A stretch of DNA of 64,000 bases from contig NC_086108.1 of assembly GCF_963921235.1 (NCBI RefSeq), positions 85,748,001 to 85,812,000 of the forward strand, written 5' to 3'. Below the pieces are notes generated by a model. The model saw nothing but the letters and a program-made list of their open reading frames with translations, was not told where the DNA came from and made no database searches. The position numbers and the translations under genes were made by a program. This stretch comes from Mobula hypostoma (lineage: Eukaryota). Below, one piece after another: positions 8,481-56,614 of this stretch. Numbering within the stretch: the stretch's first letter is position 1; every line of letters starts with the position of its first letter.

Positions 8481-8672
8481 GGGGTGTATGGGGTGTCAGG
8501 GAGGGGTAGTACCTCTAGTGGGGGAGCATGTCACGTCCTTTTCAAGGCAGTTAGTCCACTTTTGGTCCCCACCTGGCACTCAGCTCTCACCTGTGGCTCC
8601 CTGTAGCTGTTTGCATGTGACAGCGGCCACACCCCGGGCAATGGCTTCGACAAGCCGGCTAAACGAGGTGAG
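8481..8672 (+). ncRNA. HDV-like self-cleaving ribozyme (copy 1)
   Basis: P1 GGGGTGT(8481)/ACACCCC(8629). P2 CTCACCTGT/AC-g-AGGTGAG. P3 GGC/GCC. L3 starts TCC and pairs with GG(8636). P4 TGGCTT/AAGCCG. J4/2 GCTAA with putative catalytic C8659. Confidence 0.72.
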
Positions 8673-8761
8673 GTTAGCCGACGGGTCTCAAACCCTTGGT
8701 GAGATAGGGAGTTGTCTATCCCAGCATGTGAAGACAGACTCCAGCGGATTGAGCGGATGAG

Positions 8762-9030
8762 ACCATAGAAAAACTACAGCACAGAAACAAGCCTTTTGGC
8801 CCTTCTTGGCTGTGCCGAACCATTTTCTGCCTAGTCCCACTGACCTGCACACGGACCATGTCCCTCCATACACCTCCCATCCAAATATCTGTCCAATTTA
8901 TTCTTAAATGTTAAAAAAGAACCCGCATTTACCACCTCGTCTGGCAGCTCATTCCATACTCCCACCACTCTCTGTGTGAAGAAGCCCCCCCTAATGTTCC
9001 CTTTAAACTTTTCCCCCCTCACCCTTAACC
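8762..9030 (-). mobile_element. CR1 3' end fragment
   Basis: LRVRGEKFKGNIRGGFFTQRVVGVWNELP...LDRYLD plus 3' UTR. Confidence 0.9.
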
Positions 9031-11074
9031 CAATGGAAGGTCCTACAGTCAAGAAGGCGGTCTCTGCAAGCGTCGTGGAACCTGTAGAACAGGACAAGAC
9101 ACAGAAGTCGTCCTGGTCATCCACTGCACCTAGTCCAATCTCCAGCCATCTCGACTCTGTCTTGTCACTGAATCCAGATAGGAATTGGGAAGAGAGAGTG
9201 AGGCTGACGCTGCGCAACTCTCCCTCACTTAAATCCAAATCATGTGCTAGTCTCGACACAATATGGTATTGAAGTCCTCATCGACGTCGACGATGGATGA
9301 ACAATGTACCACCTTGTACCCCTCATCCTTACAAATGATCCAGTGTTCATCCATTTCCAGCTCTAACTCCTTAACACATTCTGTTGGAAGCTGCAGCTGG
9401 ATGCGCTTCCTGTAGGTGTAGTTGTCAGGGTCAATGGAGGTCTTCTCCCTTGCATGTCCTACAAGACGAGCATTCTCATGTCCTGTCTAGCATCCTCACT
9501 GCTCTAAATGTGCAATAAGAAAGAAATAAAGAATAAATAATGAAGACAAAAATCAACCTATAGCCTTCACCTCCCCTTGCCAAAGCTCCAACTCCCCACT
9601 CCAGCACTGGCCCTCTCACACAATGGCCGTTCAGCTTAAACCTAACTTTATTTTTATTGGTTCTTGCCAAGTGTCTGATTACGCACAATCCAATCTCTCC
9701 TCAGGAACTGTGGTGAGCAGTAAGTGCTGACTGCCCCGCTCGCTTCTTTTAAATTCCCTTTCCCTCTGCTCAATCCGCTGTCTCTTTGGGACTGTGCTGC
9801 GCAAAATGTGCCAGCTGTCCTTACTCACTTATTGTATCTTTCTCTCCCTCTACACTATCTGGTGTCTCCTCGAGACTGGTGCACTGTGTATGGCTCATTG
9901 GGCCGGAAGAACCTGTTGTACAATTTGGCTCCAACTAACCAAGTAGTAAATTAAAAAAAACATTATCATCCCCATTCTTTTCAGTAGGCTCTCTGCTTAT
10001 CAGTGCATCAATCCTCCCACACTTCTTTCTCAGGGGTGTACAGCAACAGTGGTTCCCCTTGATTGATGACTTCTACCACATGTTCTAGAGCAGGACTGAG
10101 GGAAGGCAGTGGGGTCATTTTTGATTACCTATGTTTGGGAACTGGATGAGTGAGTTTTTGAGAATGCACAGGTCAACTAGAACCAGCACCAACTCAGTTC
10201 TCTCCCGCCACTTCCAAAGGTAATCAGCAGAGTCCTGCAGTTGAGACCATTCAGAAAGCTTCTGCTTACTTTCAACAGTGTATGGAGATTTAGGTCCAAC
10301 TGTACCATGGAGTCCAAATGACAACTTTACCCCAAGCTTTGGTTCAGATTAAACGCCAAGTTGCTGCAGGTCAGGGGGATTCTCCCAGTAAATTGAAAAA
10401 TGTTACTGTTGTGCCATTAAAAACCATTATAATTCCTCCAATCCTCACAAGAAATGTTCTCAACCTCCTCTCCCCTGGAGTTTACCCATCAACTACAAAG
10501 CTTTACTCTAGCTAGTTAACTGTGTTTTACTCGGCTCTTCACTTTCCACTCCAATCTGGTTAGGATGTCAGCCAATAACAAGTAAATGAAGACTTAGGTC
10601 ATTCTGGGTACTTATCCTGCTCCTTGCCTATCTAAAACCTGCACTTTTGTCCTGTAAGGACTTTTAAGATTGATGCACAAAAGTTTTCACACCATAATTA
10701 TGAGAGCTGAAGACGCATTTACTTTTCGAGTCAAGTGTCCTTGAAGACGTGTACAAGTCACTGAGGGAATTAAAGTGAGCTGACAGAGTAAATTTTGAAT
10801 TATGAAGTGGAAAGGTTGACTTTTGTAGCTGTAATTTTGCTAATGTTCAGATGCTGGTAGAGAGAGTATAAAAGATTTTATGTAGCTCTGTGGTTGATGT
10901 AAAAGATGCGGCAAGAGAACCTTGACTTACCTTGGGTAACCTTTACTGCAATCCTTGAGCTACCAACATCTAGCAGTGCTCCCTTGTGAACCATTCTGCT
11001 CCTCACTGCTGACAGAAACACTTTCTCAGCCACATGGGCATATCCGAGCTATACAGTAATTTTTCTGTGATGTT

Positions 11075-12117: not shown

Positions 12118-13515
12118 AATCAGAATCAGGCTTAATATCACTGGCATATGTCAAGAAATTTGTTGTTTCGCTGCAGCAGTACATTGCAATATATAATAGT
12201 AAAAAGAAACTATAAATTACAATAAGAAACATAATAAAATAAATTAAATATGTAGTGCAAAAAGAGAGCAAACGTTAAAAACGTGAGATAGTGTAGATGG
12301 GTCATTGTCCATTCAGCAACCTGATGGTGAAGGGGAAGAAGCTGTTTCTGAAATGTTGTGTGTGTCTCTTCAGGGTCCTCTTTGTGTCTCTTCCTCCTCT
12401 TTGATGGCAGCAATGAGGAAAGGGCATGTCCTGGGTGATAGCAATCCTTAATGATGGATGCCGTCTTTTTGAGGCATCTCCTTTTGAAGGTGTTCTCAAT
12501 ACTGGGAAGGCTAGTGCCCATGATGGAGCTGGTTTGATTTACAACTTTCTGCTGCCTCTTCCAATCCTGTGTACCAGACAGTATGCAACCAGTTAGAATG
12601 CTTTTCACGGTACACCTGTAAAAATTTGTGAGCGTCTTTGATGACGTACCAAGTCTCCATAGACTCCTGATGAAATATAGCCGCTGTTAAGCCTTCTTTA
12701 TAATTGCATCAATATATTGGGTCCAGGATACATCTTCAGAGATGTTGACGACCAGGAATTTGAAACTATTCTCCCTTTCCATTGCTGATCCCTCCAGGAC
12801 AGGTGTGTGTTCTCTCGACTTCCCCTTCCTGAAGTGCACAATCAATTCCCTGGTTTTACTGATGCTGGGTCTAAGTTTGTTGTTGCAACACCACTGAATC
12901 AGCTGATTTATCTCACTCCCGTACACTTCCTTGGCACCATCTGAAATTCTGCCGACAATAGTTGTGTTGAACAAGTTGGGTCTTTATTCTTTGGAGCATA
13001 GAAGGTTGAGGGGGGACTTGATAGAGGTATTTAAAATTATGAAGGGATCGATAGAGTTGACGTGGATAGGCTTTTTCCATTGAGAATGGGGGAGATTCAA
13101 ACAAGAGGGCATGAGTTGAGAGCTAAAGGGCAAAACTTTAGGGGTAACAAGAGAAGGAACTTCTTTACTCAGAGAGTGGTAGCTGTGTGGAATGAGCTTC
13201 CACAGAAGTGGATGAGGCAGGTTCGATGTTGTCATTTAAGGTTAAATTGGATAGCTATATGGACAGGAAAGGAATGGAGGGTTATGGGCTGAGTGCAGGT
13301 CGGTGGGACTAGGTGAGAGTAAGCATTCGGCATGGACTAGACGGGCCGAGATGGCCTGCTTCCGTGCTGTAATTGTTATATGGTTATATGGTTATATCAT
13401 CAGATTTATAGATGGTGTTTGAGCTGTGTCTAGCTACATGCTTGTGGGTGTAGAGAGAGTAGAGGAATGGACTAAGCTTGCACCCTTGACATGCGCCAGT
13501 GTTAATTGTCAGTGA
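12118..13515 (-). mobile_element. Rex1/Babar LINE 3' part (RT C-terminus + UTR), split by CR1
   Basis: TTIVGRISDG..VYGSEINQLIQWCCNNKL..SKTRELIVHFRK, SIIKDCYHPGHAL, FRNSFFP. (GAATCA)n tail at 12118. Confidence 0.88.
12968..13395 (+). mobile_element. CR1 3' end fragment
   Basis: RLFPLRMGEIQTRGHELR...NFFTQRVVAVWNELP and (ATATGGTT)n tail. Same subfamily as 18597-19345. Confidence 0.9.
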
Positions 13516-18596: not shown

Positions 18597-19345
18597 ATGG
18601 TAGGGCATTGAAGAATGCAGTAGAACAGAGGAATCTAGGAATCATGGTGCATAGTTCCCTGAAGGTGGAATCTCATGTGGATAGGGTGGTGAAGAAAGCT
18701 TTTGGTATGCTGGCCTTTATAAATCAGAGCATTGAGTATAGGAGTTGGGATGTAATGTTAAAATTGTACAAGGCATTGGGCAGGCCAAATTTGGTATATT
18801 GTGTACAGTTCTGGTCACCGAATTATAGGAAAGATGTCAACAAAATAGAGAGAGTACAGAGAAGATTTACTAGAATGTTACCTGGGTTTCATCACCTAAG
18901 TTACAGAGAAAGGTTGAACAAGTTGGGTCTTTATTCTTTGGAGCGTAGAAGGTTGATGGGGGACTTGACAGAGGTATTTAAAATTATGAGGGGGATAGAT
19001 AGAGTTGAAGTGGATAGGCTTTTTTCCATTGATAGTGGGGGAGATTCAAACAAGAGGACATGAGTTGAGAGTTAAAGGGCAAAAGTTTAGGGGTAACATG
19101 AGGGGGAACTTCTTTACTCAGAGAGTGATAGCTGTGTGGAACGAGCTTCCAGCAGAAGTGGTTGAGGCAGGTTCAATGTTGTTGTTTAAAGTTAAACTGG
19201 ATAGCTATATGGACAGGAAAGGAATGGAGGGTTATAGGCTGAGTGCAGGTCAGTGGGACTAGGTGAGAGTAAGCGTTCGGCACGGACTAGAAGGGCCGAA
19301 ATGGCCTGTTTCCATGCTGTAATTGTTATGTGGTTATATAGTTAT
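18597..19345 (+). mobile_element. CR1 3' fragment (RT C-terminus)
   Basis: LGIMVHSSLKVESHVDRVVKKAFGML...LVYCVQFWSPNYRKD...LERRRL.GDL. Confidence 0.92.
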
Positions 19346-54620: not shown

Positions 54621-55146
54621 TATAGTACAGCTCAAAAGTCCTTTTGAAATCAGAACATATTTTCTGCATATTCATGTGTAAATGTTTCATTCAGAAATGC
54701 GCTGATGAATGGCACTGTTGAAATCAGCTTTCACATGGTGTAGGGTTGATACTGTTAATTTAATAGGAGCGAAATAATTACTCAGATTCACCAAAACAGC
54801 TGGTTACCATTCAATTCAAAGGCTTTCATTATTATTTTAGAAATGTTAATGATAACAAATTGAAGAAATGCCCTCTTGTTTCAACACAAGCACATAGGAA
54901 ACAGAGGCAGAAACAGACCACCTCATCAATTTCACTTTCCCCACCCAGATCCACATTTGCTGATTCATTCAGTGTTTTTATTTCCAATGATCACAGCCTC
55001 GAATGTAACCAAAGACTGGAGTATCCAAAAATTCTCAACCCTCTCCTACTCTCATTCCTAAAGGGCTGACATCTTAACCTAACTGTGAATCCTATTTGTG
55101 GATACTTCAGCAAAGGTGTATTCAGAGTCATAGTCATAGAGTCATA

Positions 55147-55337
55147 GGGGTATATGCGGTGTCAGGGAGGGGTAGCACCTCTGGTGGGGGAACATGTCGC
55201 GTCCTTTTCAGGGCGGTTAGTCCACCTTTGGTCCCCACCTGGCACTCAGCTCTCACCTGTGGCTCCCCGTAGCTGTTTGCATGCGACAGAGCCACACCCT
55301 GGGCAACGGCTTCGACAAGCCGGCTAAACCAGGTGAG
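55147..55337 (+). ncRNA. HDV-like self-cleaving ribozyme (copy 2)
   Basis: P1 GGGGTAT/ACACCCT with a G1-U wobble. P2 CTCACCTGT/AC-c-AGGTGAG. P3 GGC/GCC. P1.1 GG 55301. GCAA. P4 CGGCTT-CGAC-AAGCCG. GCTAA with C55324. Confidence 0.72.
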
Positions 55338-55718
55338 GGTAGCTGACGGGTCTTAAACCCTCGGTGAGATAGGGAGTTGTCTATCCCAGCATGTGAAGAC
55401 AGACTCTGGCAGATTGAGCGGACAAGACCAGCGTAAAGGCCAACGGTCAAGAAGGCGGTCTCTGCAAGCGTCGTGGAACGTGTAGAGCAGGACAAGACAC
55501 AGAAGACGTCCTGGTCATCCACTGCGCCTAGCCCCATCTCCAGCCATCTAGACTCTGTCTTCCCACTGGATCCAGATGGGAACTGGGAAGAGAGAGTGAG
55601 GTTGACGCTGCGCAACTCTCCCTCACTTAAATCCAAATCACGCGCTAGTCTCGACACCATCATTATGGTGTCGAGGTCCTCTTCGACGTCAACGATGGAC
55701 GAACAACAACAACAACAA
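55147..55718 (+). mobile_element. Non-autonomous RTE-related retroelement (copy 2, uninterrupted)
   Basis: (AAC)n tail at 55702-55719. TSD CATAGAGTCAT at 55135-55145 and 55719-55729. Collinear with 8481-9303. Confidence 0.82.
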
Positions 55719-56614
55719 CATAGAGTCATGGAGAGTCACACAGTCATAGCGAGAATATATAAACTCCACACAGATAGTGCCCGTGTTCAGGACTGATCCC
55801 TGGAGAAATATGTATTGAAATTAACCATTTGATGTAACAAAATGGAGCAGACAATCCCAAAATGTTAAGAATGCCAAGCTAATGTGCTGCAAAATGTATA
55901 CGTGGCTACAACAAATGTGCTTACTAAAGGAAGATATGACTGCCAGCAATCATTGTAATGAATATTGTGCAAAAATAGGGAAGTAGGAGAGATGAGCCAA
56001 CTACAACAAATGTATTGGAAGGATTGAACTTGCTGGAAGAGGTAACCTTGTCTCGGTTTTATGCATAAAAAGAATGCTTTGTAAACAATGTCCCACCATC
56101 CCAGATTGGAGTGGAGGTGAACTTCCCCCTTGCAAGTAATAAAGGTGTGTGACAAACCTCTACTCAGAGTCTGTATGGTGTTTTATTTTGTGAAATTTAG
56201 TGGAGAAATACTCAACATCTCTGATCTTTGATGGTCAGTGGTAGCAGCTCTTCCAGCTGCGCCTCTGTTCTTCCCACTCTACTTTTAGTTGTGCACATCA
56301 GGTACATCCAGGAGGAAGTTGATGACTGTCATAGGGCAATGATTGTCAGCTGGTGGTGTTCTGCAAAGGATATTTTTCCTTTTGTTAATAAAAGTTGCTC
56401 TCCCAGAACTTTGAAAATACATTTTTATATTGTGCCTGAAGGAAGTAATTAAGCCTTTCTTTCTATTTAACTTTAATAATGCCATCAAAGACATTAAGAA
56501 GCCATTACCACAATTTCAAGAAGTATTTCCCTCATTTTGATAATTGTATATAATTTATGAGGGAAATTTCTATGGAGGGCAGAAACCTCTGGATTATCAG
56601 AACCACAACAAATA

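Follow-up and report, generated by a model that had tools for sequence, protein, structure and literature searches.

A dispersed RTE-derived retroposon family with a probable HDV-like ribozyme at its head in Mobula hypostoma

The element at 55147-55720 (+) of the window, the 64,000-nt stretch of DNA analyzed here, is a worn and decayed 565-nt non-coding retroposon belonging to a large family (family A), and we infer, with a probability of roughly 0.8, that an HDV-like ribozyme freed the source RNAs of this family at their first nucleotide, G1, and that the enzyme of an RTE LINE copied them in trans. Source RNAs would arise by read-through in longer transcripts, the ribozyme would cut them just before G1, the RTE enzyme would copy the cut RNA in trans via its 3' stem-loop into new sites, and the inserted copies would afterwards decay neutrally. 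The argument draws on directly observed features, namely the architecture of the family, its parent, its target-site duplications (TSDs), its modal start, covariation between families in P4 and J1/2, and the neutral decay of its copies. HDV-like ribozymes are known in R2, L1Tc and RTE elements (PMC6765202, PMC7761336, PMC5786205), that of RTE as a prediction (PMC5786205). The element is real and the ribozyme probable; the evidence put forward in the original prediction, a structure-respecting pattern of differences between two copies, was wrong. The features are as follows, with helices named by HDV numbering.

55136-55145 (+): 5' TSD of copy 2, 10 nt, then one extra A
55147-55153 (+): 5' strand of P1 (nt 1-7, pairing with nt 149-155); predicted cleavage directly before 55147
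55154-55249 (+): J1/2 structured domain, a long irregular hairpin of ~95 nt; covaries between families
55250-55260 (+): 5' strand of P2, 11 bp with 55328-55339, one bulge
55261-55293 (+): P3 and L3 (UCC..G), with an extra 5-6-bp hairpin inside L3
55294-55302 (+): 3' strand of P1 and GG of P1.1; G1-U in copy 2 via CpG decay
55307-55322 (+): P4, 6 bp; compensatory changes among families A, B and C
55323-55327 (+): J4/2, with the predicted catalytic C at 55324, then AA
55650-55675 (+): deletion junction of copy 2, an 11-bp inverted repeat
55676-55720 (+): RTE 3'-terminal stem-loop and (CAA)n tail
55720-55729 (+): 3' TSD of copy 2, its first A common to tail and TSD
8481-9304 (+): copy 1, family A, with a 12-nt TSD and a nested insertion

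The presence of a second copy with its own TSD (10 nt, against 12 nt in copy 1) and of a GGGG start at 55147, as in copy 1, was correctly recognized in the original prediction; its end coordinate of 55718 falls slightly short, copy 2 ending at 55719-55720. Copy 1 is ~90% alike to copy 2 and is split at ~8766-9036 by a nested insertion of ~265 nt, a reverse-strand fragment of another repeat that matches 13205-13313 and 19061-19263. By itself copy 2 adds little, being damaged and one among thousands. A core pattern found 1,839 exact matches in the 3.48-Gb genome (reversed control pattern, 0); family A made up 83 of the first 100 matches listed by our own count, and the match rate among sampled copies (27/59) suggests a family of ~3,000 or more copies, over a thousand in any case. 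Identity to the majority sequence is 95.5-97.6%. TSDs of 7-17 nt in 72/108 copies, together with (CAA)n microsatellite tails, are hallmarks of TPRT. Evenly spaced samples totaling 200 kb of the genome held no family A copy and one copy of sister family B, so the two copies in 64 kb are above average.

Several loci have histories of their own. Some, such as L025 and L026, are segmental duplicates, and at least 11 copies (L244-L254, C5:123.8-124.2 Mb) lie at 20-55-kb spacing in what we take for a tandem segmental duplication, since the two examined have common flanks. Three of 29 copies (L037, L041 and L049) carry 5' inversions resembling twin priming, the term used for such rearrangements, and L231 and L273, two family A copies, each carry an insertion of one and the same short repeat at their junction.

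Family A corresponds to nt 1-521 plus the last ~45 nt of a ~4.1-kb RTE LINE in the same genome, which was found with a search pattern that excluded the usual deletion junction. Sequence continued past nt 521 into a longer element in 8/20 fetched regions and in L264, and four loci (L261, L263, L265 and L266) extend ~3.5 kb as far as the 3' end known from family A; L266 contains an APE-type endonuclease domain, below the curated cut-off, and RVT_1. All parent copies examined are broken. They start at the same 5' position as family A, and the five that cover P1 all have G6 and a perfect 7-bp P1. Assignment to the RTE clade came from the presence of a single ORF, from a tblastn match to an RTE-type ORF and from the published supplement alignments. 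With both ends derived from an autonomous APE-RT RTE, an internal deletion and no ORF, the element is, as judged from its sequence, a bipartite non-autonomous RTE, an identity that follows from the parent and from the matching layout in the Kojima supplement. A tRNA- or 5S-headed SINE was rejected, the head being the LINE's own 5' end and not derived from a small RNA. As candidate parents, 32 DUF6451 loci and the RTE family of L087 failed, and none of 30 3'-end variants was attached to an ORF. An unrelated RTE family (L093, L099 and L100), with a 988-aa open frame in L093, has a conserved ~110-nt 5' segment, a further candidate for a ribozyme-like fold.

In the full-length parent, the arms of the junction repeat lie ~3.5-4.5 kb apart, one where the 5'UTR segment ends and the other at the 3' end. 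In family A, 10-11 of 11 positions of the arms pair in 4/4 parents, with 2-6 windows pairing equally well when G-U is allowed. In the family B parent (L276, L282 and L283), the corresponding position holds an 18-nt segment of different sequence, which pairs with the 3' end at 15-16 of 18 positions and is the sole such window in 3/3 elements. Twenty short B copies between them display 15 junction forms, and a further five carry longer junctions close to the helix. Among L113-L132 and L275-L284, the varied B junctions around the 18-nt complementary segment suggest repeated independent origin. By eye, RTE-1_PSi and RTE-3_AMi have 9-nt complements at the corresponding place (PMC5786205). Duplex-energy ranks, available for single decayed copies only, are modest (1, 7, 17, 26, 46, 47 and 61 of 331-492 windows). 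Repeated template jumps across paired RTE ends are the likely origin of such deletions, as far as sequence can tell. The fuller proposal, that reverse transcriptase jumps across the 5'/3' helix, of 11 bp in family A and with 17 of 18 positions paired in family B, recurrently yield short elements whose ribozyme is an active HDV variant with an L3 hairpin, we hold tentatively, with doubt slightly outweighing belief. If true, end-pairing jumps would explain why RTE so often gives bipartite elements, and an L3-hairpin HDV variant would have been missed by standard models. A literature search returned no paper on 5'/3' end pairing of this kind.

The first 194 nt of the element are predicted, probably correctly, to fold as an HDV-like ribozyme. 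Five helices (P1, P1.1, P2, P3 and P4) can be drawn in nested double-pseudoknot order in families A, B and C and in the parent, the putative pseudoknot topology of P1, P1.1 and P3 being read from complementarity; L3 holds the CC of P1.1 and a conserved G, and GG-GCAA precedes P4. HDV-like ribozymes are characterized by a catalytic C in J4/2 followed by A, a G1 pair, and a U and a G in L3. All of these are present in the three families, and the C is altered in 2/49 copies. HDV-like L3 loops are typically 7-8 nt long, a common trait rather than a demonstrated requirement. L3 here departs from it, with a ~19-nt hairpin after its eighth base, or between P3 and P1 in a less stable reading (-6.5 versus -5.2, -5.7 versus -3.2 and -7.3 versus -2.9 kcal/mol, the hairpin-inside-L3 form being the more stable in all three families), and the ribozyme is therefore filed as an HDV variant. 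The non-canonical hairpin may impair catalysis; in copy 2 it is short by one base. The minimum free energy fold contains an extended P3 that could compete with P1, and the folding energy of nt 1-200 is no better than that of shuffles (z -0.6 to -1.0). Rfam gave no match in the window at the gathering score and no HDV family for copy 2 at E<=10; for the clean copy L060 its sole match was the HDV family RF02682, a weak one (13.2 bits against a cut-off of 44, E 3.9), whose alignment falls on the P1.1-P4-J4/2 motif. A literature search found no paper on L3 insertions in HDV-like ribozymes, and the supplements of Ruminski 2011 and Webb 2009 may already show one.

Evolutionary evidence for the fold comes from comparison between families. 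The sister families B and C have the same start and core as A, with two-sided changes in P4, where 5/6 pairs have changed on both sides, and in J1/2; the three families are ~15% apart in the ribozyme region, and the catalytic C and its flanking motif are invariant. In an alignment of 38 sequences (the two window copies, the best 10 of 29 A copies that cover the region, 4 parents, 12/23 B and 10/19 C, a choice that favors intact copies), 94.2% of cells are paired, against 38-49% in slid controls, and 10 pairs are altered on both sides, a count attained in 57/500 shuffles. P1, P1.1, P2 and P3 show no covariation, being invariant between families, and the pseudoknot consequently rests on the motif match; an nhmmer search over 275 sequences found no more distant family that might supply covariation for P1, P2 and P3. 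In a further group, B2 (L142, L154 and L156), a B-type ribozyme head is joined to a different 3' half, which carries a motif often seen in alignments of RTE 5'UTRs.

The differences between the two window copies tell another story. The four base differences originally named do exist (G1-C versus G1-U, U-G versus C-G at the base of P4, a G or C bulge, and an A6-C mismatch), but the claim that the differences mostly respect the structure does not hold: 18 differences in nt 1-200 touch 9 predicted pairs; 3 of these survive in both copies, and 6 are disrupted in one of the two (one each in P1, distal P2 and the L3 hairpin, and three in J1/2). Two of the three supposedly structure-respecting changes, G1-U and the P4 U-G, are recurrent CpG decay (C155T in 9/56 copies, C162T in 5/56), the C allele being dominant in four public runs as well, and the third, C185G, is private to copy 1. 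Copy 2 differs further in that C144 is absent and C11 present. A6 marks the subfamily of copy 2, the parent having G6; an earlier view of A6 as the majority allele was rejected as an ascertainment effect, with G found in 14/17 of a position-ordered set. Wobble pairs that arise from CpG decay imitate covariation, and caution is needed in reading them.

That each inserted copy is selected to retain an active ribozyme, as first proposed, is very improbable. In a set of 59 copies ascertained through their 3' ends, 26 pairs were kept and 48 broken by substitutions in helices, against a neutral expectation of 27.1/46.5 derived from the downstream mutation spectrum; copy-level covariation is absent in family A, and substitutions are random with respect to the helices, a result that goes against the prediction on its own terms. 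CpG sites decay at 10% within helices, the same as outside, and the core is damaged in 23/27 full-length copies and intact in 4/27. A slightly lower non-CpG substitution rate in the core than downstream (38/3075 versus 158/9000, p=0.057) and a single two-sided change in J1/2 of copy 1 lean the other way. Inserted copies decay neutrally, and selection acts on a few source elements, not on copies such as copy 2.

The idea of a ribozyme-defined start is supported by other evidence: the modal start at the predicted G and the family-level covariation favor it, whereas the two-copy comparison does not and starts are not uniform. The 3'-ascertained copies begin at nt 1 in 27/59, at nt 2-20 in 14/59 and further in in 18/59, so ordinary truncation is common; 33/59 begin within 4 nt of the predicted cleavage G. 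In the position-ordered set (30 loci, less five B/C loci and one duplicate), 15/24 begin at nt 1. No upstream sequence is common to copies before G1, extra bases there being absent in 28/47 and otherwise short, AT-rich and unrelated. A fixed start by itself cannot tell self-cleavage from an internal promoter, which, as in L1, also gives a modal full-length start. An internal promoter could have set the start here, with the HDV-like fold vestigial or serving only translation or protein binding, and would equally predict the modal start. We consider this unlikely, in that the observed start falls where the P1/P1.1 register independently places the scissile position, and the catalytic C and the motif around it do not vary among three families that differ by ~15% in this region. 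It would better accommodate the non-canonical L3 and the spread of the A6 subfamily despite its P1 mismatch, which counts against the ribozyme reading, P1-type mismatches having been linked to activity loss (PMC3774820). A translation role would fit with the finding, tentative in view of their decay, that seven parent copies (L255, L257, L260, L261, L263, L265 and L266) have no in-frame ATG from the upstream stop to the endonuclease motif. No cap-derived extra G marks the start, G standing at -1 in only 8/68 full-length copies. T stands there in 49/68 (72%), against 36% in the flanks and 13/33 at truncated ends, an excess that may point to a start 1 nt further upstream and would suit a promoter; the T lies mostly within the TSD (17/28 gap-free junctions), fitting an A added on the cDNA or a target preference. 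Either of these may account for it most simply. The pattern of -1 and extra bases resembles Drosophila R2 junctions (PMC3774820). Release of the source RNAs by an HDV-like ribozyme thus remains our preferred reading.

Family A resembles known systems in most respects. The bipartite RTE elements MAR4_MD, RTESINE2, WALLSI3 and RTE-N2_Lch (Kojima 2018, PMC5786205) likewise consist of a 5'UTR and a 3' end without an ORF, with a microsatellite tail and a length of ~550 nt; the excerpted text gives no ribozyme model or 5'/3' pairing for those families, and its supplement yielded no cartilaginous-fish member ('CMi', 0 matches). By eye, opossum MAR4_MD has the same two-part layout and turtle RTE-11_PSi and RTE-2_CPB the same 5'UTR, region ~360-510 matching RTE-11_PSi 370-519 and RTE-2_CPB 363-521, and the 3' end matches RTE-1_PSi (PMC5786205). 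Over ~150 nt of non-coding 5'UTR (window 55506-55650), identity to turtle RTE-11_PSi is ~93% by eye (PMC5786205), a likeness that could reflect horizontal transfer or strong constraint. Literature listings contained no publication on a shark or ray ribozyme retroposon. Should the family A ribozyme prove able to cleave, a hairpin in the active-site loop would be compatible with HDV-like catalysis, and vertebrates would contain more HDV-like ribozymes than have been counted. The R2 SIDEs of Drosophila (PMC3414825) are also internally deleted, with an HDV-like ribozyme head and variable 5' junctions; they belong to the R2 clade and are rDNA-specific and rare, and their self-cleavage has been shown, whereas family A is dispersed, with over a thousand copies, 7-17-nt TSDs and predicted cleavage only. 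Ribozymes of the drz-Agam-2 type (PMC4908430) share the large structured J1/2 and extended P2 of ~11-12 bp; the text consulted mentions for them no extra hairpin inside L3 like that of family A. Ribozyme-headed bipartite retroposons are thus already known; less ordinary are the L3 hairpin and the 11-18-bp complementarity between 5'UTR and 3' end, whose sequence differs between two RTE families, with deletions recurring there.
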